A stretch of 60,869 bases of DNA, filler included, from Hausera hauseri (lineage: Eukaryota): NCBI GenBank assembly GCA_046269625.1. It is 12 parts of 12 records of this genome, joined end to end, with 100 filler letters (N's around TTAATTAATTAA, not from the genome) between each part and the next. Parts side by side here need not be neighbours in the genome. Positions count along the whole stretch, not along the records: positions 53,841 to 60,869 come from JBJURY010042777.1; 11 more parts are not named here. The stretch is one strand, 5' to 3'. The position numbers and the translations under genes were made by a program. Below the pieces are notes generated by a model. It ran no database searches, was not told where the DNA came from, and saw only the letters and a list, made by a program, of their open reading frames with translations. Shown here piece by piece: positions 830 to 60,869 of the stretch (the first letter of the stretch is position 1; every line of letters starts with the position of its first letter).

Positions 830-2050
830 AAACTAAAATTGTACCTCGTAATAACTGCATGCTAGCAATGGCAAAGCCAATAATATTAGCACAATACGTG
901 AAGAGATGGAACGAGTACACAGTAAAATAAATGATGTACAGCAGTCTTTAATTCTGAAAACCCAGAGGAAATGATGCGATTTAAAGTTGCGGGAGTAGCA
1001 AATAAGTGTGGCGAAGAAATATCTAAAACCAATTACAAAGGTATTTTCTTATCGAGAAAAGAAATACCCGGAGCGAAAACTAAAATAGATAAGAAAGATA
1101 TTAAGTTGACTTAATACTTCGATAATAAGATCGATTTTCTAATTAATTACGTAAGGAAAGAAATTAGGGGTTTATATCGGGAAATAATAATTAATGAATG
1201 TAAGTTGAACTATGAAATAATGCGTAACAAAATGGCATTGGTAATGACAAATCCAGATATGGTAGCACCAGTACTACCCTTTGGCGACGGAGTTATTGGA
1301 AGAGTGATGGGCGAAGTACTAATAACAATAGGATGTAAGAAGGTGGAAGTATAAATTAGACCCACGGAAGAATGTACCATGGAATTACCCGTCGTTTATC
1401 ATTCGGAAGCGAGATATGTGTTACGCCAGTGACTAGGATATTGCTAGATATTAATGTAAAGCCCACTCTACTATACAATTGTACTTTTAATGTTACCGAT
1501 GTTCAAGATTGACAACGAGAAATGGATAAGAATGCCTAAAAGAGAACCAGTGTCCAAACCGGAGACAGAGTTTGATTAAATTACAAAGGAATCAGAAGCT
1601 TGAACCCTTAACAGGAATATCGCAGAGAGGAATTTATACCCAACAAAATTTAGAAGATTATCGACGGTTGTTGTTGTTCCCACAACAAAGACAGCGAGTA
1701 ATTACCAAACTAACACGGAGAGTAATGTGGGACGGGGAAGGATCACCACAATCGGAAAACCTTATGGATAAGGACTATATAAAGAAAGTAACGAGAAACA
1801 TTATGGAAAAGATGTGGGGAAAGTTCCTATATTTCGGACAAGCAGCCTCCGGTTTTCTAGCGATATATTTTATTATTAACGCTATGCGGACAGTATTTAC
1901 GGCCCTAGGCAAAGCATGTGATACACGCAGCAGTAGGATGCTCATGGAAAATCCTAATAGAAGTAATACCGACCGTAGCAAGCTACTTTTTAACAAACCA
2001 TTATGCACGATGGAAGAAAAAGATATTACAAAAGAGAGACGAAAGAATCC
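830..2050 (+). pseudogene. Chuvirus-like (class III fusion) envelope glycoprotein, C-terminal half, of Gypsy family A
   Basis: Manual translation: LYREIIINECKLNYEIMRNKMALVMTNPD, GRVMGEVLITIGCKKVEV, EECTMELPV, GIYTQQNLEDYRRLLLFPQQ, TM WGKFLYFGQAASGFLAIYFII, and GCSWKIL in a shifted frame. Motif order matches chuviral-type G proteins and the copies at 17520-18659 and 57275-59450. Stops and frameshifts present. Confidence 0.78.
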
Positions 2051-2360
2051 CTGTATAGCATACCTGATAACGGTAATACTAACTGGTCAAGTGAAGTCGA
2101 AGACGAAATACGGACGAATACCTGGCATTAAACAAATAGTGTTGAAGACATGAAAGCCTAAATATAGGCATGAGCTCGTGACGGATTTATCTCATCTAGA
2201 TCCCATAGATGAATATCATGGGGAATTATATAACGAGCAACTTGTAGTAAACCCTTCAGCTCCCCGATATGTGGTACATGCAGGAGTATACCCAATTTAT
2301 CAAGTACAACAGATGCGACAAAATTTTGAGAAAGACGTAAGACCTTATAAGCGTGACTAG

Positions 2361-4267
2361 ACGTGCAAAACTGATGATAAAAAAGGAGAACAAACGCCTA
2401 TATGGCGAGAAATAGAAATAGAGGTAAATGGATACCCTATCATGGCTCTATTAGATACTGGATCTACGACAACAATAATGGGAAGAAGTAAATTACCCAA
2501 AGAATTTAAAAGGAAGTTACAAAGACCGACTACTACATTAATAAATGTAGGAGCGTTCGGTACAGAAGAAATTAAGGTGGTTCTTGACGCAAAAATTAAA
2601 ATCGGCGAACAAACTTTGAAACAAACGATAAGAATAGCCGATAATTTGACTAATGAAATCCTGATTGGGTGTGACGTACTAAATCAATTATAAAACGCAT
2701 ATATAGACGTAAGAACCATTCAATTGAAGAAATTGATGAAGATCGATGCAGAGGAAAGGTCTCATTGACAAAAGATATCATGCCCCCACGATCAGAGATA
2801 GTTGTACCCGGAAAAATAGAAAGCCAAGTATTACCAGAAGTCGTTTACTTTGAGCCATTTGCACAAGTTGTGGAAAAATATGAAGTTTTAATCGCCCTCT
2901 TGTAGATAAAGTAAGGGAAGGAAAGATCCACCTGCGAATTTTTAATACGGCAAGTAAGGAAAGACGATTACGAAAGAATACAAGATTGTGAGAAGTAACG
3001 ACCAATGAGGGGATAATAAATCAAGAAACATGCTCGACAACGTCAGACATAGACAAGATAGAAAAGTTAATGATGGAAAAGTTAAAAAAGGAACCAGTCA
3101 AAGATAGAGTGAAAAATAGAATAGGCAATATTAATTGGCATGAGAAGTTACAGAATTGTGAAATCTTAACTGACGAAGAAAAGAGAATGCTAATCGAATT
3201 ATTACAAAAGAATAACGACCGATTCGCACAGAATGATTACGATTTTGGTACAATGAACGTAATACAACACTATTAAATTAAAAGAAGGACAGGATAACCC
3301 AATCAAGAGACCGTATCGATTAGCGTATGACAAAAAAACAAGAAGCACGAAAGATAAGAAATGAGGGAAAGCAAGATCATCCGACCAAGCTTTTCCCCCT
3401 GGACGGCTCCTGTAGTAATGGTTAAGAAGGATGGAACCATGAGATTTTGCATAAATTATCGAGCGTTAAATGAAATAACCGAAACGGATACATGCCCATT
3501 GCTAAGAATTGACGAAATATTAGACAGGCTTCACGGATCGACCATATTCTCAACCATAGATTTACAGAAAGGCTATTGGCAAGTGGAAGTGAAAGAAGAT
3601 AAACCAAAAACAGCCTTTTTAATCGGAGAAGGGTTTTGGGAATTTAATAGGATGCCATTCGGACTAAAGAATGGACCACCAACATTCCAGAGAGGCGCGG
3701 AACTCTTACTGTTAGACGCCCCACACGCCATGGTATATATTGATGATGTAATAATAGCATCACCAAATTTCCAACATCTAAAAGATTTGCAAGACCTCTT
3801 CGATAGATGTGAAATCATGGATCTGAAGATAAACCCGAAGAAATGTTCATTTGCTCAAACGGAAGTATATTTTCTTGGGCATAGAGTAGACAGATACGGC
3901 GTAAATCCTCAAGACAAACTATTGGAAAAAATAAGAGACTTCCCTAAACCAACCACAGTTAAAGAATTACGCCGATTTTTAGGTTTGGCGAATTACTATT
4001 GTAGATTTATAAAGGATTTCAGCAAAATCGCAAAACCTTTATATGAACTATTGCGTGAGGACCTGGATACAGTAGTTTGGACTACCGAGTGTCAAAAAGA
4101 GTTAGAGTATTTGAAAGAAAGATTGCTGACTGCTCCAATATTAATTTACCCCGATATGAATAAACCATTCATATTAGCTACAGATGCAAGCGACTACGGA
4201 GTTGGAGCAGTGTTATAACAAAAGGGTGAAGACGGTAAAGAGCATTCAGTAGCTTATGCTTCACGGA
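2361..4267 (+). mobile_element. pol: Ty3/Gypsy pol (aspartic protease, RT, start of RNase H), decayed, cut by contig end
   Basis: ALLDTGS protease motif (2442). RT motifs SPWTAPVVMVKK, RFCINYRALN, DLQKGYWQV, MPFGLKN, YIDD. RNase H PFILATDASDYGVGAVL and VAYASR. Confidence 0.95.
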
Positions 4268-8200: not shown

Positions 8201-8215
8201 ACACTGAACCAACAA

Positions 8216-8494
8216 TCAGCTATATATTTACTCCAGGATTGTAGATTCAATATACGTTGGACATACAAAAGTACCATTGCTACGAAAATCTGCTTGGAAA
8301 GTACATACAAACCAGGAGACTTTGTGCAGATCATAATGGACCACCAAATATATGTACCTGTTTTATCAGGATTATTCAATTATATAGAAATAAACATTAC
8401 AGATTATGCTGGAAAATTAATTGACTTTTTATTTGGATTAAAAACTAACTTGGCGTTATATTTCACGAGAACAGATGATATATACGTTTACTGA
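8216..8494 (+). pseudogene. Polinton minor capsid (penton, PX-type), C-terminal part
   Basis: QLYIYSRIVDSIYVGHTKVPLLR (frameshifted) then YVPVLSGLFNYIEINITDYAGKLIDFLFG..LALYF; homologous to 10602-10856. Confidence 0.75.
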
Positions 8495-11651: not shown

Positions 11652-11693
11652 GATCTCGATGATGATGATGATAGTAATGACACAGTTTGTTTA

Positions 11694-12809: not shown

Positions 12810-13069
12810 TTGACGAGATATTATTTATTCGAACCTTTGCCACGTGTGTGAGGATATAATCGACAACCGAAATTCTAAACTTAAATTAGAAACATTTTGA
12901 AATTTTATAAATTCGACCATGAATTTAAACTAAAAATGTAATATTAAAAGTATAATTTAAGTTTGGAATTTTCAAAAAGCTTGTTTCCACATGAGTATTT
13001 TGAAAACAATAAAATTTTCAACAACTGGTGTTACTTTGGAATGAGTAATTACAAACGATCAAATTCTGC

Positions 13070-14372: not shown

Positions 14373-17300
14373 TTTTATCGAATAGTTCGTTGGTGAAGTT
14401 TCTCCCTCGATCCGTTAGTATCTTATTGGGCGGTCCGTATCTACAAATAATTTTCCTTATCACGGCTTCGGCTAACGTCTCTGCTTTCTGATAATACAGC
14501 TCCACTAACTCCACGAAGTGAGTTAAACGATCGACGCATGTCAGTATATATCTGTTATTTCTGTGCCTCATGGGTAATGGTCCTACGATGTCCATCGACA
14601 TAGCTTGCATAGATCTGTCTGGTAGAGTTATTGACTTTAGCTCTGCTATATAATTCCGCATTTTCCTTTGCTTAGTCGTGAATACTTCGCAAGCGCTTAC
14701 GCAATTTTTCACATCAATATATATACTAGGCCAATAGTATTTGTTCAGCGTCTTATCTAGCATCTTCTTCCAGGACATGTGCCCAACTAAATATAAATCA
14801 TGTTCGGCCATTAAAACCTCGGTTCGTAAGCTTTTGGGTATAGCCACTAATTTCCTTCATTTTCGTTTGTAATACAGTAGTTTTTCATTATTTGGAGACA
14901 CAATATTTATGTCCATATCGTTGTAAATGTTTCTTTAACTGGTGTCCTTTTGGCATTACGTCTGCTTCAGCGTATTCAATGATTTGTTGGGTAACCCGAT
15001 CCTTCTTTTGCTCGCTGGAGATTCTAAGTGCTCCATCTAACGGTAACGTTCATTGTCGGTCTACTAACTCTTCGAGTTGGTTTTTCTTCATCGTCATGAT
15101 CGCACATGTTTTTGTTTTTAGCCTTGACAACGCATCTGCGTCAACATGCTTCGCACCTGGCTTATATTGAAATTCGACATTATACCTCGAGATCTCTTCG
15201 ATTCACCTATTCAACCTACAAGTAAGGTTATTTGCTCGTTCCTTTAAAGTTGTAACGGCCTTGTAATCGGTAACTATTATTACCCTCTGTCCATATACGT
15301 AGACGTTAAAATGCCTCAAGGCTTCTTTTACTGCTAACGTTTCTAATTCCGTCACTGAATAATTTTTCTCCGCTTTCTTCAGGGCGCGTCTTCCGTAAGC
15401 GATTGGGTGTTCTAGTTCTTCGTCCTCGCGTTTCTGTGCCAATTCATATCCGATACCTTCTTTACTTGCGTCTGTTTTAGTAATAAACGGTAAGCTAAAT
15501 TCAGGGTATCTCAGTACTGGTTCGGTAGTTAATATCTTCTTTATTTCGCCGAACGCCTTGTGTTCAATAACGGTCCATCTCCATTTCGTTCCCTTTTTTA
15601 ATAATCGGTATAATGGCACATTGATTTTTGAGTCATCCGGTACGTAAGTAGCATTATATCAACATAGGCCTAACCAATGTCTCAATTCTTTCTGGTCCTG
15701 GGGTTCCATGCAGTCCGAAATCTTGTTCAACAATAATTTGTCCGGCTTTGATACTCCCTATCCAACTATACGGCCAAGGATACGGCGTTCTGGGCCCATT
15801 TGCATTTTTTCGGATTTAGTTTCAACCCAGCCTGTTCTAATCTCATAAGGGTATCCTCAATGTATTTTAGATGATCCTTTTCGTCTTTTGATGCGATCAT
15901 TACGACGTCTAAATACGCAAATGCGTGTTCGAGTCCCATTAGCATTTTATTTATCATCCTGGTAAATATGGCTGGTCCAGTGGTAATTCCAAATGGCATA
16001 ACATTAAATTTGTACACTCCATCATGGGTCTTGAATGCTGTTTTATAACGATCCTCATATTCGATCTCTACTTGCCAATATCCGAATTGTAAGTCCAGAG
16101 TGGTAAACCATTTTGCGCCTGACAGCCTATCTTGAGCCTCTTTCACAGATGGTAGGGGAAAGGAATCCTTTATCATGAGAGTGTTTAATGCACTATAATC
16201 GATACAAAATCGATGTTTTGTGGTACCTTTCTTTTTGACCATAAGAATAGGTGAATACCAAAATCGGAAACTCGGCCTAATTATATCGGCCTTTAACATT
16301 CGTTCCACCTCCTTGATCATCTCAGGTCTTAGAGAATGTGGTGGTGAGTACCATTTTGGTATTTTCTCCTCTTCGAGACCAATCTCGTCATTGGAAACAG
16401 GCTTTTTCTTAAAGTGGTATAGTCAACCTTAATGCTTTTGCTCGGCAAATGTCTTCTTCGTCCTTCGCAATAATTGACATATATCGACATAGTAATTCAT
16501 AAAATTGACAATAGACTTTTGGTGAAAATTTAGTATCGAAGTGTGGTGGAAATTCAGCGTATTTATAAGCTTTTTCTTCAACCGTTATAGCTGATACTTT
16601 GCAAGTATGTCCCATTGTAGTGTTGGCATATACTTTCACTGAAGTTTGAGCATTGTTCACTTTTCTTACCGGTATCCGACCAGATACTACTCTGGTTAAT
16701 ATATTGCTCAATATTATATTCGGATTTAGTGTTTCTTTCGGCTGAAAGTACACTGGTAGATCGTCGTATTGACAGATTTGTGCAAATATTAACAATTCCG
16801 TTTTAGGTGGAATGTTTTCGTCGCCCGGAATCCATACCTCTCCGGTTTCTCTTTCTTTATTAATCTTGGTTCCTTTCATAGATCCTAGTTTGATTAGCGT
16901 CGAGGTGTTTAAGTCAACTGCGACGTTTGGTAGACGTCTTGGTATATCACACCCTAACACTACGTCATCCGTTAAGTGTTTCATTATCGAACATTCGTGT
17001 TGGAATGTTTGTCCCACTATTTTAAGATTACGATTCCATTTAAATTTTAGTCTGGATTCCTGTCCGAAAGCTCCTATACTTCGTGGTCGGTTGCTAATTG
17101 CAATCGTAGTTGTCTTCGTAATGTCTTTGGTATTGATCCGTCCTTAATAAATGATTTCTTTGATCCGGTGCGTATACTTCTCAATCGTCAATACTATTTT
17201 GGGCCAAAGGTCTACCTTCTTTTATCTAAGGTTTTCTAACGACGGAAATCTTGTACCCATTTAAACTAATTTCCGGTATTTTATTTTTGGCTACTTGTCT
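14373..17300 (-). mobile_element. pol: Ty3/Gypsy pol (PR-RT-RH-INT), decayed, same family as 53841-57182
   Basis: RT RFCIDY, LDLQFGYWQV, MPFGIT, YLD. RNase H KTDASKEGIG, PIAYGRR, NYSVTELE. Integrase H..GH..YYWP..C, MDIVGPLP, CVDRLT, TDRGRNFT. Confidence 0.95.
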
Positions 17301-17519
17301 TTATTCCTCACTAGGATATAATCCATTATTTACGCCGTTTTCATCATCTCGTTCCGGTGTATTGATTAGTGGTTCTCGGTTATTTCGATTATATGAAGAT
17401 TGCATTCGTAAATTATCCCAAATTGACGATTTAGTTTCTATATACCGTGACATGCTTGGGGAGTATATCAGCTTGTGGTCCTCTACCGATTGGTGGCATA
17501 ATTCAGAATTTTCCTTACT

Positions 17520-18659
17520 TCAGTACATTTTTCGTAATGCACCGTACTGCTTCGTCCCTTCATAAGGATCTTCATAACTGAAAGGTTTTCGATAGATTTC
17601 CGAGTTGTAAGAGCTAATGGATCTCTTATCGCCGTCCTTGTATTGTGGTGCCAAAGGGGGCGGCATCGGCAAGGGCGGCCTAAGTGCCTTGTGATTGCAT
17701 ATCTTGGAAACCGCGTCTCCTCCCTTAGGCTCATCATCATCTGAATCGTTTCTTTGAAATTTCGTATTTCCTTGTCTTATGAAGAATATAGGTTTTTTCT
17801 TTCGTTTCCGATTATAGTAACCAACGAGTTTCTCAGCGTCGTTTTTCCATTTGTTTTCTTCATAAGCTTTCAAAAATTTCCCAAAAGACGTTTTAATTGC
17901 TGTGAGAATTTTACATAAAAATCCGGTTAGGGTAAATATTTCACAGCCATTTATAACGGATTTAATTACTGCTTTTATGAGCTGTACTAAAAAATAGATA
18001 GCCAAAAAATCCAGATGCAGCTTGTCCGAATATTAAAAATCTTCCCCAGATTTTATATAGTATTTCTGTAGTGACCCTTTGGTAATGATTAACGCCAAGC
18101 AGAGATCCCTTTATAATCATCTCTATTCTTCAAGTAATCTTCTATTCTCACATTTTGTGTTTCCGACGCGAAAGTGGTTATTTCAGCCTCTGCCACTAAG
18201 AACACTTCATAATTAGTGGCGTACATTACCACGTTACATCGGGAAAGCATTTGATTCTTAATAAACTTTAAACCATGATCCTTGGAGATCAGTATCGTGG
18301 GTGTGGATTGTTCGGCCACGTCCTTCCTTGACCTGGCATTATTGTCAGTTGTGTCCACATATCTTTTTCCCGTGGTTTCATTAAAATTTATTTCTTTTAT
18401 TCTAATGAAGTTACAATAGTTCATAAATTGTGGAATCCAAATAACTGTCGAGTTTCGGAAGGTGCAGGCACCATCTTGGATGTGACACTTCCGGTTTTCA
18501 ATATAGGTCTTCGTAACACTATGGAACATCACCTTTTGGTTCCCCATTTCTGTTTTATAGAAATCGACCACTCCTATTCCTCCTTCTTTTCCTTTTCCCG
18601 TATCGTATTCACCCCCGTTATAGTATCCGTTGTGCATATCTAGTTTCACAACTGCTACT
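17520..18659 (-). pseudogene. Chuvirus-like glycoprotein (internally deleted) with TM and cytoplasmic tail, upstream of pol
   Basis: ENRKCHIQDGACTF..VIWIP..CNFI, SRCNVVMYATNY, IWGRFLIFGQAASGF, AIYFLVQLIKAVI; colinear with 57275-59450. Confidence 0.78.
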
Positions 18660-19852: not shown

Positions 19853-20169
19853 CTGCAAACAAACACATCGCATACAAACACAACATGCAGAATCATATTC
19901 AGCAAGTATAGCAGGGAAAATCAGCGAAGGTTTCAACGTCTTATTCACACTAAGCTCAACTAACACAAACACTTTTCGTTTTGCGATTTTTTCTCTCTAT
20001 CATTTTACCCTTCATAGTTTTAACTTTGCCACGGGGGCTGATGTGCTGCCCGAGTCGACGTCGCCCTCTGGCCCATTAGGTTGGGCACGGCGGGCTTCCG
20101 CTGCCGGCGCTTCGGGCACATAGGCAGGCCCAGATTTTCAGTCTTGAAAACGACAATGGATGCAATTAC

Positions 20170-20690
20170 CATGGACGATGTTCAATCCGAAATCATTAGA
20201 AATGGAATGGCATATTTTGAATCGAAATGTTTCATCAATCGAGACTTAGCAGCACGAAATATCTTAATAAATGAAAACCACGTGTGTAAAATAGCAGATT
20301 TTCGTTTAACACGAATCGCTCGTGGATCAGAAGATACATATAATACTCGGCAACGTGCAAAATTTCCAATTAAACAGACTGCTCGAGAGGCTGAGTTAAT
20401 GGGAAAATTCACAATAAAATCAGACGTTTGGTCGTACGGCATTGTATTGTACAAGATGATAACTCATGGTCAGACCTCGTTCCCTGCAATGAACAACACT
20501 CAGATCCTACACGAGGTAGAGAAAGGCTATAAAATGGCACGACCACAAACCTGTCCGCAGCAACTCTATCAAATCATGTTAGTGTTGGGAACAATTGCCA
20601 GAAAAGCGACCAACATTCAAAAGCCTCAGTCAGTTTTTCGAAGATTCGACCAGTATTAAAGATGGATATAGACCGACTAATCTAACATAA
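20170..20690 (+). pseudogene. Src/Frk-family tyrosine kinase C-lobe, intronless and inactivated
   Basis: GMAYFES..NRDLAARNIL..KIADFRL..AKFPIKQTARE..FTIKSDVWSYG. A frameshifted tail CWEQLPEKRPTF..DGYRPTNLT* carries the C-terminal Tyr. HRD>NRD, DFG>DFR, WTAPE>QTARE. Confidence 0.88.
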
Positions 20691-32720: not shown

Positions 32721-33043
32721 ACTGTGGTTGAGTCTGGGAGCTGAGTGTTAGCAGTGTCGGCAATTTATTTCTTGGCTAGCGGGCAGGTGACCATTGCGGG
32801 TGGGGCGGAAAAGACATCTATATTCGGAAGGGGCAGCCAATTGCCGTGGGTTCTGCTTCAGATGTAGCTATTTGTCATCATCATCACATGACTGCCTAAT
32901 AGTAGGTGATGGGCGTTGTTTCCCAAGATAACAGTAAGATAGGTTCGAGGGCGTCTATTGTCTGATAAAGTATATTTTTTTATTCTTCTTCTGGTATAGG
33001 TATTAGTGACTATCAGCGTGTAACCAGGCAACTTTTTACACTG

Positions 33044-33365
33044 GCAATTTGTCAAATCGACAACTTTTCATTTTTCAACTTTTAATTTCGACAACTTTTT
33101 ATGTTGGCAATATTTCATGTTGGTAACATTTCATGTTGGCAATTTTTCATGTTGGTAACTTTTCATATTGGAAACTATTCATCTTCTCAATTTTTCATGA
33201 TGATAATTTTTCATATCGGCAGCTTTTCATATCGGCAACTTTTCATGTCGGCAACTTTTCACATCGACACCTTTTCATGTTAGCAACTTTTCATGTCAAC
33301 AGCTTGTCATATTGGCAACTTTAGCATGGTGACAAATTTTCACATTGGCAACTTTTCACGTCGAC
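33044..33365. repeat. 16-bp minisatellite (consensus GCAACTTTTCATGTTG), about 20 diverged copies
   Basis: Direct reading of head-to-tail units with no spacers. Confidence 0.92.
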
Positions 33366-33404
33366 ATGTTTATGCAGGTTTTGTTTTATCTAACAGAAGG
33401 CAAA

Positions 33405-34227: not shown

Positions 34228-35371
34228 TTCAAAAGCGGAATGGTTTTCAGTTTTATCGGCATCCAACAATCATCAAAGTCAAATTTGGTAAATACTGCCG
34301 ATACTGATTTGTATGATTTGCATTATGTCTGTCCACTTGGTCACATTTCAATACGGCCAAAATACTGTAAATAAAACAATATTCGTCGTCAGTATTTTGT
34401 ACATTCACTACCGCATAAGAATGCTTTAGAGCAGCAGGTGACGGTATGAATGAACGTCCGGATAAGTAAATTATATCACTCGACTTTGTTACAATAAAGT
34501 CAATAGTGACAATTTTTATAATTCCTCATCCACTATCCTTTTCGGTATAGTTGGTGATTTTTTCGTAGAGCTTTTCGCCTACAGCGGCAATAAAATCCTT
34601 GGAATACTGTACAGTTCGATGTGACAGATACCATTGTTTCTTGTAGCCTTGTACGTTTTTAAATTCTGCAAGTGCATAATACTGCACTTTGCAGTGGTAT
34701 TGTTGGAATTTCTTCACTTCTGATTCCAACCGATTGCGCACATTGGACGGTACATGCTTTAATTGCATTGTTGATTGCTGCGATATGTCGACTTTAATTT
34801 CCATATATGATCTGTTTAGATAGTACTTGACAGTAATATCAGGTTCCTGCTGCTGCTTTGTACGTATGCGTCAAGACTTGTTGATGTTTGACGTTTCCTG
34901 CTTGTTGAAGGAATGTTGCTGCTGTTTTCTGCGTCCATCACTGTTTGCTTTTGGGTGTTCAAGTTGGTCCAAATGGTCCTTGTGTTGGTTATAAAATTGT
35001 TCGTAGTTGACTTGTATCTCCACTATAGAACAACCGAGACAAACACATGCCTGTTTACCACGCAGCGTTATGGTGCCATAGTATTGCTCCATTGCAGTAT
35101 GGCATCAAACAGCATTATGCACTTTACTATTACAGTACCTTGGGTACACGGGGCAATGCACAGTCATCATCTTTTTAGACCGTTCAAACGGACCAAGATG
35201 ATGCTTGTGTATTTCATAAAAGTCGGGGTACAGATACTGTATTGGAATATTACATGCCGGACACAAATATGTGTCCCAGCCCACTGAGTAATATTTCGCC
35301 ATCTCTTGATGGCATTGATTTGCCTCATGTCTGTGCGAAACGCAATATATTGGATATTCATAGCATTTCAT
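34228..35371 (-). pseudogene. polB: Polinton pPolB N-terminal region with two Cys/His repeats
   Basis: YTEKDSG*..GRSFIPSPAALKHSYAVVNVQNTDDEYCFIYSILA matches the GSSYI.LP..INV.N.D..CF block at about 5150-5250. Confidence 0.75.
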
Positions 35372-36839: not shown

Positions 36840-37322
36840 AGATTTTTTCCATGAATCCATGGTGAAATACTACGGAAAAAGATATGTCGGCTCAACGTAT
36901 TACATATGCCAATAACGTGAATCAGACTCGAGTTATCATATTTGGACATCTACAACCAACATAATCACCACCTCCAGTCGTTTACCAAATCGAAAAAAGA
37001 TATATTTTCCATCAAAAGAAATGATATTAATGCACAGAGGAAACCAATATACAATCATGTTGGTGAAAAACGTCGCCAACAGGTGCATAAGGAAGCATTT
37101 AATCGCAAAATGGTTACCCACTTTATTCCTGCAAGTGATCAGAACAGTCTCCCCGATTTGCTGCGATATTCGAAAAATGATGCAACCACAGACTTAAATG
37201 AAAATGTGTCAGAACTCAATGCACTGAAAGTTAACCTTGTTCTGAAGGCCGCGTTTGAAAAGATGGTGAATTGTCGAAAAGGGCTTTCAAAACAAGAAGC
37301 AAACCTATCCTGCAGTCCTTAG
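36840..37322 (+). pseudogene. polB: Polinton pPolB N-terminal fragment with one Cys/His repeat
   Basis: HESMVKYYG..TYYICQ..IYNQHNHHLQSFTKSKKDIF, then ELNALKVNLVLKAAF..AFKTRSKPIL, similar to 4368-5010. Confidence 0.65.
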
Positions 37323-38404: not shown

Positions 38405-38892
38405 CAACAAAGGAGTCATCATATATAACCTACCTGGATGCCAACAACTTATACGGATGGGCAATGAGCGCCCCATTGCCACATGACAATTTCAAGTGGG
38501 TTGAGCATCCTGATGACATCCCTATTATGGACATGGACACAGCTGGAGATACGTGCTACATACTGGAGGTGGATATGGAATATCGAACTTCCATCCACAC
38601 AAGGCATGAACAGCTGCCTTTCCTCCCTGAATGCTGACCACCACCCAATGGAAAGCAGCGAAAGCTGCTTTGCCATTTGGGTAATAGGGATGGGTATGTA
38701 GTTCACTACATTAATCTCCAAAAGGCAGTTAAACGTGGACTCCGCATTACAAAGATACACAGAGCTCTCCAATTCAGCCAGTCCAAGTGGCTACAGTCCT
38801 ACATTAATCTAAACACCAAGTTGCGGACAAATGCCAAAAACGATTTTGAAGAAGACCAATTTAAACTGTATAATAACAGCGTTTTTGGCAAG
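38405..38892 (+). pseudogene. polB: Polinton pPolB catalytic fragment (motifs A and B)
   Basis: SSYITYLDANNLYGWAMS, YILEVDMEY, LPFLPE, YVVHYINL, FSQSKWLQSYINLNT, FKLYNNSVFGK. Confidence 0.93.
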
Positions 38893-39001
38893 AAAGGGAG
38901 CAGCAAAAATAAATAATAAGCAAATTTATTATTTATTTTTAATGTTTAATTATTGGATAAAAAAAATACTTTTAAAAACTCTTTAGACTTCAATTTAAAC
39001 T

Positions 39002-47624: not shown

Positions 47625-48886
47625 TTAATAATTTCTCAGTTTGATCCAAATTTGTCTTTTCTGTTGTCTCAAGACTATTCTGTGTACCACACAGTAAGCT
47701 ACATCAAGGTCACCTTCATTGCACTTTAAACTACACTGCACTAAACTACATTCTTCTGGTGACCTCACTGACAAGTCTGAAGAATGACCATGGGCTTTAC
47801 ACAATGCTTCAAATCTTTCTTCATCACCACAACTAATCAGTGTTTCTTCTTGCAGTCTTGCTATCTCTTCAGCTTCTGATGCAGCATTCTGAAATAAGAC
47901 TACAGAGAAATCGTCTGTTTTTAACAAATGTGATGTTCTGTTCTCAAGTGTTGCTTCAGTATCCATTAGGTTCCAGTTTTCAGAATTGCCTCTAAATGTG
48001 TGACCAGCAAACGCATATTGCATGCAGTAGATATCATCTAATGACTTTGAAAGCCTGCCAGGAAATCTTCTTTTCTGCTTTCTTCTATGTGGAGATGCAG
48101 ACTCACTAACTGCCAAAATAGCATCTATATGTCTTTCAGGGAATCGACCACGTGGACGAGATAAAAGCAAAGGAAATGGATAAATATTGTTGTCTGAAAC
48201 TCTTTGTTCTCTTGCAGGTTTCTGGTAATGTACAATATTTTCCTTTCTGTCTATGGCACTGAGAATGATTTCCTTTTCACCATCTAAGTCCTCAGTCTCC
48301 AGAGTTGATAGGCTATCATCATTGAATGGTGAATCTTTTGCATTACTTGTTGACTTTGCAGTCTGTTGATTAGTGTCTAGCAATAGCTTTTTCTTGTCCA
48401 TTCTGTTTGAATATGAATATGGTAACATTGTGTTGTCCAATGTTCTTCCTACACGACCTGAAGTGACATGATGTGGCAATCCACTGTGAGACGTATGCAT
48501 CAAAATGTGGCTAACTCTTGGAGAAAGGTTTGGAGATTCAGGTTCTGTGCAGTAGTCAGAACTGATGGCAGAGTCACTTAAACTTCTGACTCTGTGCTGA
48601 AACTCATGTATTCTCAGTTTCTTTGTGCCAGATTTATTAACCATTTCTTCTGCACTGTCACCAATATCTGATGTTTCCATTTCATCTAGAATATCCACTT
48701 TAACTGTCAAATCATCTCTAACTTGACCAGTTTTCTGAGACGCTTGCAGAGAGGGATTTTCTGAATATTTCACCTGTGAATTAAATACATTATCTGATCC
48801 AGGTGATACAATGTTTTCACTTGAGTCACTTTGTCTTGGGGACTGTTGAGGTGTTGTATACATTGAAGTGTCAGATCCACTGGATC
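47625..48886 (-). CDS. Intact large (probably terminal) exon of an unidentified host gene, Ser/Asp/Glu-rich
   Basis: 412+ codons without a stop; acceptor TTTTGAATTTACAG ending at 48887; CpG-poor coding composition; RVRSLSD and LSKSLDD phospho-like motifs. Confidence 0.7.
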
Positions 48887-49329
48887 CTGTAAATTCAAAA
48901 GTGTACAGACCACAAGNNNNNNNNNNNNNNNNNNNNNNNNNNNNNNNNNNNNNNNNNNNNTTAATTAATTAANNNNNNNNNNNNNNNNNNNNNNNNNNNN
49001 NNNNNNNNNNNNNNNNTGGAGAGTCATTTATTATATGACAAGAGGTGTTGTGACTTGAGTATAATTTGCTGTATGATATGGCTGTGGAGTGTTGGCTACT
49101 GTAATATAAAAGTAGATACAATTGAATATTACCTCCAGCAAAATTGGGTTGTCGTGGATGTCGCGGAGGATACTCTTTGGCCAGAGAGATTCCCATCTAT
49201 CAGTGTGGTATCACCAGTGGGTAGTATAGTGACACAAAAATTATCTCGATTGAGAATCCTACCATACATTTGATAGGTGACAACTGTCACTCATCATTTG
49301 TTTGATGAACTGTTCGTTTGGTGGGAAAA

Positions 49330-52080: not shown

Positions 52081-53561
52081 GTCTACCGTCATGGGACAGA
52101 TCGGCCACAGGTCGCTAGCGAACTCTAGTTGGAGTTAGATCTAATTGGTGACTGGTGCGGGGAATCTGGGGCTCTTGTCAGCCCGACAAAAGCGTCGGTG
52201 ACTTGGTTCTCACTTAACAATTGTATGGTTAATATAATCACTCCATGTGTCAGTGTGTGTGGAATGGCTGCGGCAAGAACTAACTCCATGAAATATCTTG
52301 GCGTGCGGTTTACCCGTAGCTTGGTCTTCGAAGAGCATATAGACCACACCATAATGAAAGCTAGGAAAGGTCTAACAGCATTGAGAGTGATGGCCCCGGA
52401 GCATATCGAACAGCGCCTTCTGTTTCTTCTTTACCAGGGCATTGTCATTTCCGTAATAGAATATGGCCGACCATTTCTAACCCTGAGCCACACTCAGAGA
52501 GACTGGCAGGATTCAAAATGAGTCTATGCGCATCAGGGCCGTGTGTTTCTTGTTGGACCTTCCAACCATAGACTTTCGGACATAGCTGTGTCCGGCACAG
52601 GCATACCTCCGCATTAGGCCAATGCAAACCACCCACTGCATTGTGAAATACAGAAAAACAAAGGCAGCAGACTAAAAAGGGGAAAGACATGAATGGGTCG
52701 GGCAGCAGATGTGCTTCAACATGTGTGTGACCTTGAAGATATTGAACCTGGCGAAGAGTGGGTATCAGTTCCTTCAAACCTGAATACCTCGTTTCGAGTC
52801 ATCATCAAACTCAACAGAAAAATGAAATAGACCAGTCTGTTGGTTGTCGACTCAGAGGTTGAGGCGTTGGTTGCTGAGAACTCGTCTGAAGGTGACATTG
52901 TCATCTACACTGATGGCTCAGTTATTCGTCACGTACACGGTTCATGAGTCTTCACGGCTCGTCAGGCGGGAATCATCGTTAAGGAGGACAGTGGACCTTT
53001 TGGTGTTACTACAAGTAGTATGACAATAGAGATAATGGCAGTCACAAAGGCGTTCTGTTGGCTGGAGACGCAGAGTGTAAATGATGTGTGTATTTTTAGC
53101 GACTCGATGAGCATGCTTCGAAAATTTGAAACAGCCCGCGTTCGTAGGCAATGGTTGGAGCCTGTTAGAGAGACAGTGCTGGAAAGAGTCACCTTCATTT
53201 ATGTTTCCGGCCATGCTGGAGTAAAAGGGAATGAACGAGCAGAAAAACTGGCGAGTACTGCTACTGTTATGCGTAGCAGAGCCATGGACCGAGCTGACAT
53301 CTTGAATGCCATTCGCAAGATCGCCCGGAAGGAGGAGTTTACAGAGATTCACAATCTGTGTCCCTTTCTAGAATGCACGAACTTGGGGTGATGCGAGGCG
53401 CGGCCAAATATGAGCGTCACGCTTTAGGTACCCGATGTTTGGTCAATCAACACCGAAGTGGAACTGTTAGTCGTCGTTTGCTTCAGGGGCTACTAAGGAG
53501 GAAGTCGGAGCACTTATTGAATTGTTCCGCATGCAATGGTGACGATCTGTCGACTGACTGA
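52080..53561 (+). mobile_element. I-group (Ingi-like) non-LTR retrotransposon, 3' part: RT C-terminus + RNase H
   Basis: MKYLGVRF, LYQGIVISVIEYG, VIYTDGS, TTSSMTIEIMAV, IFSDSMS, YVSGHAGVKGNERAEKLA. Confidence 0.88.
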
Positions 53562-53569
53562 CCAACTAG

Positions 53570-53619
<50 letters not shown>

Positions 53620-53740
53620 GACTGACTGACTGACTAACTAACTAACTAACTGACTGACTGACTAACTAACTAACTAACTGACTGACTGACTAACTCACTG
53701 ACTACCTAACTGGCTGACTGACTGGCTAACTAACTAACTG
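53552..53740. repeat. (ACTA)n/(ACTG)n tetranucleotide microsatellite forming the non-LTR tail
   Basis: Begins at the element's stop codon and runs to the contig end. Confidence 0.95.
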
Positions 53741-53840: not shown

Positions 53841-56800
53841 ATCTTCTGGATTTGCGTAACACGGAGTCATTCCTAAGTCCGTAGGTAATATTGCTTCGCG
53901 TCCATACATCATAAAAATGACGTAAGTCCTGTGGCGGAATGTGGAATTGTATTGATAGTAAATTGTGTTCTTTCTAAAAATTCGTCCCAATCCTTCTGAT
54001 CCTTCGCGACTCCGGTACATAAGACCCATAGAACTGTTGCGTTCATACGTTTGACCATTCCGTTACACTAACGGTGATATGCGGTAGTAGTTAATCGTTC
54101 CATTTCGAAAATCTTAGTAATTTTATCAAATAACTCGCTCGTAAAGTTCCTTCCTCTATCGATTAAGAGTTGATCGGGAGGGTCCGTATCTGCAAATAAC
54201 TTTCCTTATTACCGCATCTGCTAAAGTTTCGGCCTTTTGATCGATTAGTGCTATTAATTCGACGAAATGCGTTAGGCGATCCACGCATGTCAAAATATAT
54301 TTGTTGTTTTTATGAGTTGTAGGTAAGGGCCGTACTATATCCATAGACATAGCTTACATAGGTTTATCTGGTACATTGATCGGTTTTAATTCTGTTTTAT
54401 GGTTTTTCACCTTCTTTTGGTGCACAGACTTCGCAAGCGTTCACCCAGTTTTTCGCGTCGATATAGACGCTTGGCCAGTAATACTTATTCAATTTTCTTT
54501 CTAATGTTTTCTTCCTAGACATATGCCCAGCTAAATGTGAATCGTGTTCGGCCATCAACACTTCTGTTGATAAACCCTTTGGAATATCTACCAGTTTACG
54601 TCCCTTTCGTTCGTAATATAAAATATTGCCTGGGTTCTATGCATAGTATTTTTGCCCGTGTCTTTGTAAGTGTTTCTTTAGCTGGTGTCCTTTCGGTATT
54701 TCATCTCGCTCGGAAAATCTGATTATTTGCTGAGTAACTTTATCCTTGGCTTCTTCTGAAGAAATCTTGATTGTTTTATTCAGTGTTAAGGTCCATTGTC
54801 GTTCCATTAATTCTTCGAGTTGGGCTTTCTTCATAGTCGTAATAGTACTTGTCTTTGTCTTAAGTATTGATAACGCATCTGCGTCAATATTTTTACTTCC
54901 GGGTTTATATTGAAATTCGATATTGTATCGGGAGATTTCTTCGATCCACCTATTTAGTCTACATGTTGGGTTACTGGCTCGTCCATTTAACGTCGTAACA
55001 GCCTTGTGATCGGTAACTATAATAATTTTCTGCCCGTAGACATAGACATTAAAATGCCTTAAAGTTTCTTACACAACTAATGTCTCTAGTTCCGTAACTG
55101 AATAGTTTTTCTCGGCTTTCTTGAACGATTGTCTTCCATATGCGATTGAATGTTCCAATTCTTCGTCTTCTCGTTTCTGAACCAATTCGTAGCCAATCCC
55201 TTCTATACTTGCGTCTGCTTTAATTATAACTGGTAAATTAAAATCAGGATATCTTAGCATTGGTTCACATGTTAAAATTTTCTTCATTTCAGCGAACGTC
55301 TTTTGTTCAATATCGGTCCATTTCCATTTGATTCCCTTTTTTAATAAACGATATAATGGTGCATTAATTTTCGAATTGTCTGGCACATAAGTGGCGTATT
55401 ATCCACATAAGCCTAAGCAATGTATTAGTTCCTTCTGATTTTGATGGCCCATACAATCGAATATGTTGCTCAGTAAGGATTTATCTGGTTTCGATCCTCC
55501 TTCTCCCACTATATGTACGAGATAAGATACAGCATTCTGTGTCCATTTACATTTCTTGGGGTTTAGTTTCAATCCTGCCTGTTCTAACCGCATAAGAGTC
55601 TTTTAGGTGTTCTTCTATTTTCAATGCTATTATTATATCGTCTAAATAGGCGAACGTGTGATCGAGTCCCATTAACATTTTATTCATCATTCTGTTGAAG
55701 ATAGCTGGGTCGGTTGTGATACCGAACGGCATGACGTTAAATTCGTAAACTCCGTTATGTGTCTTAAACACTGTTTTGTAACGATAGTCTTCTTCACTTT
55801 CTACTTGCCAGTATCCGGATTGTAAGTCCAGTGTGGTATACCATTTTGCTCCTAATAATATATCTAATGCTTCTTTTACTGACGGTAATGGGAATGAATC
55901 CTTTATCATAAGAGTGTTCAGAGCTCTATAATCTATACAGAATCGATGTTTAGTAATGCCTTTCTTTTTAACCATAAGTATTGGTGAGTACCAAGATCAG
56001 TAACTTGGTCATATTATGTCGGCCTTTAACATGCGTTCTACATCTTTAGTTATTTCTGGCCTCAATGAATGAGGCGGAGGGTACCACTAAGGCATCTTTT
56101 GCTTTTCCAAATCAGTTTCATCGTTGGAGCCAGGTTTCATTTTTAATGGGATTGTTAACCTTAGAGCCTTTGCTCTACCTATATCTTCTTCATTTTGGGC
56201 GATGATCGACTTGTATTTGCATAGTAGTTCATAAAACTGACAATAGACTTCTGGTGAAAATTTAGTTTCAATATGAGGTGCAAATTTGGCACATGTATGG
56301 TTTTTCTTCGATTGTTATTGCCGATACCTTATAAGAATGGTCCAATGTAGTATTGTCATATAACCTTACTGGGGTTGGCGCGTTATTCACTAATCTGATT
56401 AGTATTAGACCTGTTACCACTCTTGTAAAAATGTTACTAAGTATGATATTTGGATTAACTTCTTCTTGTGGCTCAAAGTATATTGGTTGGTCGTCCTCCT
56501 CCCGGATTTGAGAATAAATTAACATTTAGGTTCTGGGCGGAATATTTTCATCGACGGGAATCCATACTTCTCCTAGTTTCCTTTCTTTCATTGTTTTAAT
56601 CCCTTTTACTGGTCCGAGTTCAAGTAGTTTTCCAGTATGCAAATTTAATGCAATATTTGGCAACTGTTTCAATATATCGCAATCTAATACTACATCATCG
56701 GTTGACTGATCCATTATGGCAGATTCATGTTAAAGGATTTGACCCATTAGATGAACTAGTGGATTCCACTTAAATTTGGGCTTAGATTCTTGCCCGAAGG

Positions 56801-57182
56801 CTTCTATGCTACTCGGATCTGATGACGATGCTGGCTGTAATTGTTTTTGTAGAGTCGGTGGTATTGATTCTAACTTAATAAATGATTTTTTCGATACTGT
56901 GTCGATTAAAGCATAAACTTTCCAATCATGAATGGCAACTTTTGTAAAGGGTGTTCCTTCCATAACTGTTCCATAACAACTTGATACGTCCTTCAGTCGT
57001 TTACTTGACAAAATATTATGTCCGTTTATTGTTATCTCTGGTGGTGAAATGATATTTTTGGTCAAATGTTTCAATTGCTCGTTTGGATATAAATTGTTGC
57101 CTACTATGCTATTCTCATTGTTTTTAATTACTGATTCTTTTGTTATCGGATTTTGTAGCAATTTCACTCCTGGTATTTCCAA
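53841..57182 (-). mobile_element. pol: Ty3/Gypsy pol (PR-RT-RH-INT), decayed
   Basis: PR VYALIDTVS. RT RFCIDYRALN, LDLQSGYWQV, YLDDII. RNase H KADASIEGIG, NYSVTELE. INT HDSHLAGH..YYWP..CEVC, MDIVRPLP, TTAYH..NGMV. Confidence 0.95.
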
Positions 57183-57274
57183 ACTGTCGATCTTGACTCT
57201 ATATTACAAGCGATTCTTGGTGAATACAATATTCTATGGTCATCTTCCGTTCGTTTTTGATTAGTGATCTGCAT

Positions 57275-59450
57275 TTACTTTAATACTCCGTATTGTTTTG
57301 TTCCTTCATAAGAGTCCTCATAGCTAAAGGCTTTTCTATGGTTTTCCGATTTGTATGATATTATCCATGGCCTGTCGCAGTCTTCATATATTGGACCTGT
57401 CGGTGGGATAATGGGCAATGGCGACTTGATTACTGAATACAGTTTGTGTCTATTTTGTCTGAGGATCACTTCTCCTCCATTAGGCTCATCATCATCAAAG
57501 TTATTTCTTCGTGTTGTTGATTTCCTCTTTGCATTTTGATAGAAATGTGGATCTTGTTTGTCGCTTATAACTATGGTAGCCAACATGGCGTTCAACGTCA
57601 TTTTTCCATCGATTTTCTTCATAGGCTTTGAGCATTTTTCCGAAAGGTGTAATAATTGCTGTTAAAATCTTTCAACAAAATCCTGTTAGCGTGAATATTT
57701 CATCCGTTTATAATCACTTGGATTACTGCCTTCACTAATTGTATCAAGAAATAAATTGCCAAAAATCCGGATGCGGCTTGTCCAAAAATTAAAAATCTTC
57801 CCCAAATTTGTAGAGTATTTCCGTGGTTACTCGTTGATAATGGTTTACATCGAGCAAGGATTCGCACTTAGCCTGATAACGGGTATCGTCCACTACTGAA
57901 GCCATGGCTTGGTTTAATTTGTGTGTTCACTGCTGCGGAAAAGCGAGAAATTGCATACAGGCTTCGATCTCTTTTGGTCTGTGTATGCCCTTTTGAGATG
58001 TATCTTGGAACTTGTCGTCAGTAATCACTTTTGCTAAATTGGTTACGGTTAGCTTTTTAGGAACGGCAGTGACACCTCCATTCGGCAAACTAACCCAATC
58101 CGTTTCGCTACGTCTAAACATTGTTTTGCCTAAACTTGCTTTGCAATCCTTTAGGATTATAGGCTGTGTTACATTATCCAGCAACATCTTAGTGAGGGGC
58201 ATGGCTAATCGTGGAGTATTTCGATAGATTACAGGAAGTTCTTGTATACATCGTTTTTCGTCAACATTAATTGGTACATCTCTTTTTTCACACCCATATG
58301 TCAATAGAACTTCACCAGAGACTCGATCAAAGATTCCTTCTCTCATGGGAATAATTGGTGAGGCTAACTCAGGGTTTGCGTAAATAAGAGCTAATTTTGT
58401 CTTCATAATTTTCATGTCCAATTTGTAATCGTTTGTTATCATTTAGTGGTATAGTTCGGCTATCCCGACTTGTGATTTGTAATAGAAATAATCATCTCGG
58501 TTTTTCAGATAGTCTTCAATCCGAATGTCCTGCGTTTCTAGATTGTAGGCTTTCACATTTATCTCTGTTTCTGCAACGAAAAACGCTTCATAATTAGTGG
58601 TGAACATCACTACCTAACAACGTGAAATCATTTCTTTTTTAATAAATTTCAGTCCATGTTGGTCAGAGATTAGTATCGTAGGTGTATGATGTTCTAATAC
58701 GTCTTCACGTATCCTTGAACTGACGTCATATTTATTTATGTATCGTTTCCCCGTAGTTTCATTAAATTTCAGTTACTTAATTTTAATAAAATTACAGCCT
58801 CTTCCAGAGGGTGGTCCCCATATTACAACGGAACTTTTGAATGCACAGGTTCCATCCTGTATATGACATTTTCGATTCTCGGTATATAGCTTAGTGACGC
58901 TATAGAACATCACTTTCTGTACTCGCATTTCCGATTCGTAAAAGTCTACGACTACTACGTTTGCTTCTAATCCTTTTCCGGTGTCGTATTTTGCTTCACT
59001 ACATTGCCCATTACGCATGTCTAGCCTTCCGACTACTACCTTACATGCAGTAATTATCTTTTCGGGATGCATCTCTAATTCCAGATTATCCCATTTTAAT
59101 CTTCCGGTTTCTCGGGCCTGCTTACAGTGTTGTCTTTCCAAGTTCATTGGAATTGGAGGGGTCGTTGGTTTGATTATGGAAGAATATTCGTGCATTAGTC
59201 CACAGTGGAAAATGCTACGAGATCATCTCAGCATATACTTCGTGCCTTCCAAAGATATCAATTCTTGTTGTTAATATAGGAAATAACTCTTCTCCTTCGT
59301 TTCCAATTTGTGCGGTCGGGCATCTTCACATGCCACTAAGTCCATTAGTGAATATTTTTGTCCAAGCTTAAATTTATCTCATTCGTATACAGTAACCGCA
59401 CCTATCTGTTCTATTAGCACCATTATAGTGAGTAAGCTCATTAACCAATT
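57275..59450 (-). pseudogene. Full-length chuvirus-like envelope glycoprotein (signal peptide, Cys-rich ectodomain, TM, Pro-rich tail) upstream of pol
   Basis: Signal WLMSLLTIMVLIEQIGA|VTVYE*D..YSLMDLVAC, then FFHCGLMHEYSSI, HCKQARETG, NGQCSEAKYDTG..NVVV, KCHIQDGTC..VIWG..CNF, LALIYANPE, RVSGEVLLTYGC, CIQELPV, KGI..LAFPQQ, WGRFLIFGQAASGFLAIYFLI. Confidence 0.8.
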
Positions 59451-60869
59451 GGATTCATTCTTTCGGTTGTTATTATCCGTTGTCGAAAAGTTCCATAAGA
59501 TATCTTCGAGTCTATTGTTGCTACTGGTCCTTTTGTCTTCTTCCTTATCAAATAATCTTGGCCAATTTACTTCACAAGGAAGCTTCCTAGCCGCTTTCCG
59601 CACCAGGCTTGTAGCTCAATTGAATTCACTATCTCGATTTGGATTTGTTTTAATTGCTAAGTACAGTAATACTTTCCTTAGCTCTTCCGTCGTATTCTCC
59701 ATCATGATTTTCTCAACTATTGCGTCGTCAGTTAGGTTACTTTTTGATAGCTTAAAACGTGAACTTCTTATTGTCCTAGCTGCGTTAAATATCGCCTTCT
59801 CGTTATCATCTAATGTGTCTCCTCGAAGGCTCAAATAATTCACGATTCGTATTAAATTTTTCATTAATTCATTTAATTCTTCATTATCCGTACTGAAGTT
59901 GGGAATTGACATTTGTCTCAATTCTCTAATCAGCTCCCCGTTGTAGTCGATGTCTTCTCGGATTTTCCTGAGCCTACCTACCGGCCGTCTTTGTTTCGGG
60001 GCAGTTGACAATGTCATGCTCAATGGTACTAAATTTTTTTCGCATTGTTCCTTGTCTTTGTCTGTTTGCAAATACTCGAAATACATTGCGGCGTCTCGAA
60101 CTCCCATGATTTGTCCTACACATTGTTCTGTATTTGCTTTACGTGTGGCTTCTTCTTTAGTCTGTTCGTTGGTTATCGTTACCACTATTCTGTTTGTTTC
60201 GTCGGGTATAATTCCGGCGTCTATTAACTGTGCTAAATCATCTAGCATTCTATCTCTGAAACAGAATCTATAATTTGACTCGTTCGTTCCACCATTATTC
60301 CTTAACCATTCTTTCACGTCCCTTGCGTAGGAATATGTGGTCAACTCACATTTTTTTTCGTCCATCCATTCAGATGATATTTTTATTTTCATTGTTGTTT
60401 CAGGTTTAGCCCTTAAGATTTTAGCATACTTCTTTATCAAAAGTAAATTGTGTTCTCACTAGCTAATTTAATCAAGGTCGGAATAAGCTGTCTTAGTTTA
60501 TTTTTAGTAATGTTTACGTTAATTAGCTCAATTAAATCCTTTTCGGTTAGCGCTGAATCCAGGAGCATCTCCACATTAAACTTCTTGTTCTGCGGGTACG
60601 CTTCTATTTCATTTAGGTGTACTGGAGTTATAGGATTTTCGGCCGTTATCGCCTGTAAATATGCATCCCATTCCGATTCGTTCCCAATATCTGGAAGTCT
60701 ATAGTCTACTAAGGTTGCGTTTGTTCTTTGCACATTTTCTCGAATTTCTTTCAATCTTGGTTGTATTTCTTTCATCTGCGTAGTTCGGAAACCTATTCCG
60801 TTTCCACAGGCATACTGAATCATTTTCAGTAATTCGCCTAATTCATTAGAATTGATAAATCCCTTTTGG
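59451..60869 (-). pseudogene. Unknown N-terminal region (gag position) of the G-carrying Gypsy element, more than 450 codons
   Basis: ORFs 60437-60823 and 59616-60440 overlap by 4 nt (likely one frameshift). 59616-60440 continues in frame past a single TGA into 59379-59603. No CCHC seen. Confidence 0.6.

Follow-up and report, generated by a model that had tools for sequence, protein, structure and literature searches.

Does a viral-type glycoprotein gene that stands ahead of a Gypsy-type pol belong to the same element, and what kind of element would that be? The question is raised by a window of 60,869 nucleotides (assembly GCA_046269625.1, filler included), which consists of 12 contigs of 4-7 kb each joined by artificial spacers (N-TTAATTAATTAA-N) and is not one continuous piece of genome. 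A retroelement copy, here called copy A, makes up the entire last contig (53841-60869) and reads on the minus strand. We scanned this strand of copy A against Pfam, with each frame treated separately and stops entered as X. The order found was an upstream region (X), the glycoprotein (G), protease (PR), reverse transcriptase (RT), RNase H (RH) and integrase (IN) (Table 1). An earlier note on this DNA had placed G ahead of a Gypsy-order pol on one strand, and the Pfam matches together with a protease profile bore this out. Copy A is very probably an internal fragment of a dead Ty3/Gypsy long terminal repeat (LTR) retroelement of an invertebrate, of the Burro type (GAG-ENV-POL). This assignment is carried by the domain identities, their order, the coding constraint on them and the single open reading frame (ORF) of intact relatives.

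State and abundance of copy A

Copy A is dead: its seven aligned segments, which overlap a little, contain 18 in-frame stops, and its frame changes about nine times. The frame of X and G holds eight of the in-frame stops, and a frame change precedes the membrane helix. The ratio of observed to expected CpG (o/e) was 1.07, showing no depletion despite the heavy decay. The description of the element as potentially infectious does not apply to the copies found here, which are riddled with stops. The contig starts and stops within coding sequence; it has no direct repeats of at least 30 nt, and neither LTR is present. Gag capsid and CCHC knuckle were absent from the contig by Pfam. In five relatives (P0006, P0015, P0016, L002 and L003) they lie upstream of the same cassette of helical, ubiquitin-like (Ubl) and Bcl-2-like domains.

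The abundance of the family was measured in run X1, the single public run that holds the copy A stretch (share 0.36) and possibly the source of the analysed DNA. At a threshold of at least 85%, 17,012 of its 15.5 million contigs matched copy A and all 30 bins were covered, with no single contig spanning the entire stretch. This indicates that the copy A family is highly repeated in run X1, sequencing depth not being the same as copy number.

Table 1. Retroelement features in the window
Feature	Position	Strand	Evidence or remark
Copy A: upstream X, linker and start of a short helical domain	60440..60868	-	assigned by position; runs off contig end
Copy A: ubiquitin-like domain, without C-terminal Gly-Gly	60177..60440	-	relatives' profile
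Copy A: helical domain in Bcl-2-like position, BH3-like LxxxGD motif, one in-frame stop	59529..59912	-	position and motif
Copy A: G, class III (gB-type, chuvirus-like), with signal segment, Cys-rich ectodomain and membrane helix	57703..59438	-	PF24664, predicted fold
Copy A: cytoplasmic tail of G and linker to protease	56964..57702	-	coding, no LTR
Copy A: aspartic protease, then domain named dUTPase-like in Burro	56316..56963	-	relatives' profile
Copy A: reverse transcriptase, Ty3/Gypsy type, broken	55400..56314	-	RVT_1 E 6.5e-25
Copy A: RNase H	54925..55320	-	PF17919 (RT_RNaseH_2) E 1.7e-27, PF17917 (RT_RNaseH) E 5.4e-26
Copy A: integrase, H2C2 zinc finger and core, truncated by contig end	53841..54585	-	PF17921 E 5.3e-15, rve E 3.2e-6
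Copy B, sister family: G part (internally deleted), tail, PR, RT, RH, IN	14373..18659	-	same order as copy A
Copy C, more distant family: 5'-truncated G, tail, PR, RT, start of RH	about 830..4267	+	Pfam

The pol region

Pfam made no protease call in copy A, which is too decayed for it. A profile of the protease region from nine relatives matched this part of copy A with E 8.6e-23 (best of 500 shuffles 0.025), and the copy A protease aligns to the Pfam-called protease of the relative P0001. By the relatives' profile, a homologous domain is present between PR and RT; it had no Pfam match to dUTPase in the scans, and its dUTPase-like label is taken from the description of Burro (PMC6431247). The best solved structure for the RT was Ty3 RT (E 5e-28), followed by 8r0s, an enzymatic polyprotein (4e-19), and the RT of human immunodeficiency virus (2e-8). 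The integrase is colinear with that of intact relatives. The earlier assignment of pol to Ty3/Gypsy was thus confirmed by the PR-RT-RH-IN order and by Ty3 RT as the best structure.

BEL/Pao elements of mosquitoes are known to carry a chuvirus-type G (PMC13524379; PMC12440569), which would speak for a BEL/Pao element of the Anakin kind carrying a chuvirus G. Anakin has the same glycoprotein family, but its pol is BEL/Pao and its hosts are mosquitoes, whereas the pol here is Gypsy (Dezordi 2020, PMC7642597). With an RT that matches Ty3 best and with Gypsy-type RNase H and H2C2 integrase families, this origin is scarcely credible for copy A. Its Pfam matches included no family that we take to mark BEL/Pao.

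The glycoprotein

The Monjiviricetes_fusion family (PF24664) matched G at 59435-57804 with E 4.7e-29, covering positions 9-540 of the 653 in the profile; a second match at 57813-57703 (E 4.2e-8) takes in the membrane piece. The membrane helix lies at 57765-57721, and G contains 14 Cys. G had been called complete, with a signal peptide and a membrane segment. It is indeed full length, but it is not intact, given the in-frame stops and the frame change ahead of the helix. The helix passes the hydropathy cut-off of 17 residues; the signal segment fails it and is seen by alignment to relatives. With this cut-off, which misses some membrane helices, the segment at the start of G was found in six of eight relatives.

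We further modelled G from an alignment of 15 sequences (pLDDT 70.5, pTM 0.49) and searched the model with Foldseek. The best viral match was the G of a chu-like virus (E 2e-28), the top matches being 14-19% identical, and the best match in PDB was gB of herpes simplex virus (E 2e-12). The TM-scores were low (0.2-0.4), so that the fold class rests on E-values and Pfam and not on global superposition; the sequence profile of G gave 0 matches against PDB. The structure check proposed in the earlier note had looked to chuvirus-like G and herpes gB, and both were matched. The results support a predicted class III fusion glycoprotein of the chuvirus-like, gB type.

Linkage of G and pol

The window holds two further copies of this arrangement, B and C, so that the count of three copies stands; the three represent two families with an identical order. 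Copy B is 72% identical to copy A in DNA over 2.8 kb and 63% identical in G protein, and the grouping of A with B had a support of 100. Copy C gave Pfam matches to PF24664 (E 8e-24 and 3e-23), protease (E 3e-10) and RVT_1 (E 9e-26), and in trees it was nearer to the relatives L002 and L001 than to copy A. We counted the differences between A and B at codon positions 1/2/3, which were 41/37/93 in G (164 codons), 16/14/30 in the tail (56 codons), 48/35/97 in the protease region (179 codons), 21/20/91 in RT (178 codons) and 48/38/138 in RNase H and beyond (292 codons). The third-position excess shows a coding constraint common to G, tail, PR, RT and RH.

The protease had been described as following G directly. 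No LTR lies between the two, but about 240 codons of tail and linker intervene. Neither a zinc knuckle nor an ankyrin match was found between G and PR of copy A, and the linker is protein-coding, in agreement with the earlier claim that no gag knuckle or LTR separates them. A knuckle is missing there because gag would lie upstream of the cassette, off the contig. One 421-nt contig of run X1 covers 57083-57496, inside the tail and linker.

The linker is colinear in A and B, and its stops fall at differing places. These stops, present in the tail and linker of both copies, together with a stop in L002 between the Bcl-2-like domain and the signal segment, could be read as signs that Env was a separate product, made by splicing or by a stop or readthrough before pol, with element and order unchanged. 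We consider this improbable, since the stops of A and B do not coincide and at least eight intact relatives read G through PR-RT-RH-IN without a stop. We also rejected a programmed stop behind the Env tail, since A and B share no linker stop. A late-domain motif in the G-PR linker was dropped as well: of 14 relatives tried, 11 had a linker that could be measured, and 4 of these showed a loose motif, whose place was not conserved.

A short-read contig that has no flanks or LTRs, with no single record covering the whole stretch, might also have arisen by nesting or misassembly, which would leave a chuvirus-like endogenous viral element, or the env of an upstream element, beside an unrelated Gypsy pol. 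However, the same junction occurs in three copies of two families, the linker is under coding constraint, and G is 28-30% identical to element-borne G as against 14-19% to the G of free viruses. The many single-ORF relatives largely refute such an accident, and we regard it as very improbable. G is tied to its own pol, as the earlier note held, and not to a separate upstream element: no LTR intervenes, three copies have the same order, and gag, G and pol share one reading frame in intact relatives, which makes G part of the element.

Relatives of G

A scan of 1.84 billion proteins with G gave 247 matches at E<=0.001, 15 of them at <=1e-30. The nearest database relatives are about 30% identical to the G of copy A (best 28-30%). 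Domains were scanned in 20 G relatives, mostly long ones, taken from the 150 matches listed of the 247. Protease followed G in the same chain in 10 of these 20, with RT and RNase H in addition in 5 and integrase as well in 4; a gag signature stood ahead of G in 3. Four relatives (P0151, P0168, L001 and L003) are single ORFs of 2693-4844 aa with G-PR-RT-RH-IN, and L002 carries gag, CCHC knuckle, Ubl, Bcl-2-like domain and then G in one frame with one stop. A locus search with a tighter G alignment led from 160 matches to three loci. When G was searched by words among longer proteins, none of 2036 candidates proved a relative, where the full scan succeeded, and a scan of viral contigs with a piece of G gave 19 pattern matches and no relative.

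In a quick G tree of 46 sequences, copies A, B and C fell in a branch of 24 rows (SH-aLRT 98) that includes all 17 polyprotein-embedded relatives and is separate from 22 more distant G proteins.

Some features of the relatives are recorded here in their own right. In L002 the lone in-frame stop (L002:3058-3060) falls right at the boundary of Bcl-2-like domain and Env signal segment, 999 open codons preceding it and 402 following; it may be decay or a readthrough site that sets the ratio of Gag to Env-Pol. In intact relatives (L001:2-10279, P0001, P0006, P0151 and P0168) the stretch from Env to RT holds two to seven protease-like domains, in some cases with inserts of ankyrin or C2H2 finger type, and the same ORF continues past the integrase into additional membrane-spanning regions. 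Past its polyprotein, L001 has an accessory ORF (L001:10617-12104, +) with an RNase_T-type exonuclease domain (E 1.4e-5). A complete G-PR-RT-RH-IN polyprotein, P0004 (HBK71150.1), was deposited as a protein of a Flavobacteriaceae metagenome-assembled genome and is probably animal DNA in a bacterial bin.

The region upstream of G

Upstream of G, an unknown region of more than 450 codons had been described. The length holds (about 475 codons), but the region can no longer be called unknown, as ubiquitin-like and helical domains are now assigned within it. X as a capsid was rejected on the same grounds. Its upstream part is a 143-codon open piece with no Pfam match; in relatives a helical domain precedes the ubiquitin-like domain, and the end of this piece scored 3.4 bits against the relatives' helical and Ubl profile, which is not significant. 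The same profile, built from seven relatives, matched the ubiquitin-like domain of copy A with E 2.5e-5 among 1362 targets (best shuffle 0.035). Ubiquitin also appeared as a weak lead for X in PDB matches and in Atlas ubiquitin clusters at 0.80 (a lead only), and L002 matches Pfam ubiquitin with E 0.0047. Compared pairwise with 166 stored proteins, X had no significant match; only the profile detected relatives.

The domain directly ahead of the Env signal segment in six relatives matches Bcl-2, by Pfam in five of the six (best 2e-5) and by a PDB match to Bcl-xL (E 2.8e-4). In copy A the helical domain at this place is a putative Bcl-2 by its position, and its LxxxGD motif is one that we take to be BH3-like. 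L002 has gag and the CCHC knuckle about 250-500 residues upstream of its helical/Ubl/Bcl-2-like cassette, and on this ground the gag of copy A would lie past the contig end.

Relation to published elements

The novelty suggested for the env-before-pol Gypsy layout does not hold, because this layout has been published for flatworm, nematode and bryozoan elements (PMC6431247, PMC13524379). The module order given for planarian Burro elements in 2019 was Gag, Ubl, BCL2-like, env in frame, PR, RT, RH and IN (PMC6431247), and the planarian Burro env, in frame between gag and pol, matches mononegavirus fusion glycoproteins (Arkhipova and Yushenova 2019, PMC6431247). Copy A resembles the giant planarian Gypsy elements Burro and GYPSM1 in the Ubl domain, the Bcl-2-like position, env before PR, a domain at the place of the dUTPase-like one, RT, RH and IN, and also in the mononegavirus-type fusion env, the apparently high copy number and the occurrence of decayed copies, seen there in D. 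japonica (PMC6431247). Copy A itself shows a class III env before pol on the same strand with no LTR between them, and a ubiquitin-like domain upstream of env, the gag side being seen through the relatives. Unlike Burro, it shows no MATH, BIR, ankyrin or RING domain and no giant size (25-30 kb), its contig ending before them; its Bcl-2 domain is putative, and its host is probably not a planarian. We do not file copy A as Burro proper, a planarian family; Burro1 has been called planarian-specific (PMC13465017).

GAG-ENV-POL Ty3/gypsy elements with a gB-type env are described from Nematoda, Bryozoa and Platyhelminthes (Chary and Hayashi 2026, PMC13524379), for which term counts in the master table imply about 36, 10 and 9 rows, respectively, and a chuvirus-like glycoprotein stands beside gypsy pol in 114 arthropod elements of the same study. 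These "ancient errantiviruses" share with copy A the Ty3/gypsy pol, the gB-type env and its place ahead of pol. They differ in that the set consists of intact elements annotated only in three phyla, whereas copy A is decayed. Neither Bcl nor ubiquitin appears as a word in PMC13524379, main text and 7 supplements included. The nematode elements of Sacco et al. 2022 are cited there with a metavirus-type pol, env and pol flipped, and an RNA-virus glycoprotein. The hosts of these endogenous retroviruses are nematodes. These non-canonical elements reportedly have a continuous gag-env-pro-pol ORF, and they are not known to carry a Ubl/Bcl-2 cassette.

For molluscs, a paper that deals with their LTR elements (PMC6238403) lacks the terms env, envelope and glycoprotein. 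The literature searched yielded no mollusc element of the Burro type, a weak negative given the thin coverage of subscription journals and Repbase. The layout being in print, the finding chiefly adds a divergent, decayed family to it, of which only the host range might be new. A mollusc host, or metagenome relatives that share the Ubl and Bcl-2-like cassette, would, if true, show a broader lineage.

Proposed mechanism

The layout raises a question of mechanism, as capsid, envelope and enzymes would come from one membrane-spanning polyprotein with a predicted Bcl-2-like block of cell death. In an active element this polyprotein would comprise Gag, helical domain, Ubl, Bcl-2-like domain, class III Env, PR, RT, RH and IN. 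The internal signal segment would thread the Env ectodomain into the lumen of the endoplasmic reticulum (ER) and the membrane helix would stop transfer, so that the polyprotein would span the ER membrane twice; this topology is modelled on the hydrophobic segments that flank G and on general membrane-protein biology. Gag-Ubl-Bcl-2 would stay cytosolic; once cleaved, the signal segment would anchor it in the manner of tail-anchored Bcl-2 proteins. Pol would also stay cytosolic, tethered to the Env tail until the protease of the element frees the parts, and would be recruited to budding particles via Env and not via a Gag-Pol frameshift. The predicted Bcl-2-like domain would protect the producing cell from death. 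Particles would most likely have moved between cells of one host, from soma to germ or stem cells, and the family would have expanded and later decayed. Spread within a host is preferred over spread between hosts by analogy with Drosophila errantiviruses (PMC13524379).

Alternatively, Env may have been kept for a role other than entry, as an anchor for Pol and the Bcl-2-like domain or for cell-cell fusion, with no particle leaving the cell. The available parts of PMC13524379 hold no particle or infection data for gB-type elements, and a fixed 1:1:1 output of Gag, Env and Pol would be unusual for a budding virus. We think this unlikely, as the entire ectodomain and its cysteine pattern are constrained, which goes beyond the need of an anchor.

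Several points weigh against the assignment of copy A to a dead Burro-type element and against the model built on it. No LTR, primer site or gag was seen in the window and the element ends are unseen; an LTR pair was likewise not seen in L001 or L003. The helical domain ahead of G scored 2.1 bits against the relatives' Bcl-2-like profile, where shuffles reached up to 9.0, and is thus no match, and a single-sequence fold of X was unusable (pLDDT 35). The single-ORF state is unreadable from the broken copies A-C and was read from intact relatives. In the quick trees of G, RT and RH, copies A and B sit on long branches distant from every relative, and none of these trees settles where they belong; the likeness to Burro rests on the published description. 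The repeat evidence comes from one run, maybe of the same source as the analysed DNA. Topology, processing, particles and anti-apoptotic action are a proposal drawn from sequence.

Host clues

The copy A contig carries no flank, and possible clues to the host come from neighbouring contigs. The best host clue is a prospero-like exon at 18761-19780 (-), which had 13 matches; all eight named ones were heterobranch gastropods, the best of them Lymnaea (56%). A sodium-channel exon with a GT donor in contig 1 (512-652, +) scored 86.6 bits against vertebrate channels versus 66.6 against cockroach, in a library without a mollusc channel. Because this exon is vertebrate-type and the prospero-like exon gastropod, the window may mix organisms. 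The sodium-channel exon lies in CpG-poor sequence (o/e 0.14-0.53), and copy C, with an o/e of 1.08, starts 180 nt later. Copy C may be an env-before-pol Gypsy remnant in a vertebrate intron, or the contig may be chimeric. Intact env-before-pol Gypsy elements were not found in vertebrates in the accessible parts of PMC13524379.

The CpG ratio of copy A would fit an invertebrate better than a vertebrate. In the sections of the PMC13524379 genome table covered here, ENV-POL prefilter counts are given for 6 of 43 gastropods (Arion 6/0, Achatina 4/0, Oreohelix 4/1, Haliotis rufescens 3/1, Patella vulgata 2/0 and Lottia 1/0), and the available parts of the paper name no mollusc with the env-before-pol order. 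For a gastropod host of copy A, the chances seem to us about evenly balanced. A wider proposal is possible but tentative, and we would sooner doubt it than accept it. The Burro layout, in which one polyprotein joins Gag, Ubl, Bcl-2, class III Env and Pol and which has so far been treated as planarian-specific, would mark a lineage that is widespread among animals. That lineage would also have expanded in a heterobranch gastropod, in a phylum without annotated GAG-ENV-POL elements, and perhaps left copy C as a remnant in a vertebrate sodium-channel intron; its Env signal segment would anchor an element-encoded Bcl-2, and its Env tail would carry Pol into particles.

Other features of the window

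Polinton/adintovirus-like pieces were found at 4818-6914, 34256-34870, 36921-37319 and 38638-38913, and at 8147-8491 and 10932-12824. They include regions of protein-primed DNA polymerase B (DNA_pol_B_2, E 3e-8) and an Endonuclease_7 match (E 3e-5); their ORFs without a Pfam match may, as a guess, encode virion proteins. A 429-codon open frame at 47628-48914 (-) had no Pfam match and no relative among 5583 candidates. The decayed element at 52129-53740 (+) is LINE-like; it has an RNase H at its C-terminal end (E 2.6e-8), finishes in a TAAC/TGAC microsatellite and, we presume, resembles gastropod LINEs. A Src-like tyrosine-kinase fragment without introns at 20042-20656 (+; E 1e-41) is probably a processed pseudogene, and about 18 degenerate units of 16 nt form an array at 33016-33371.

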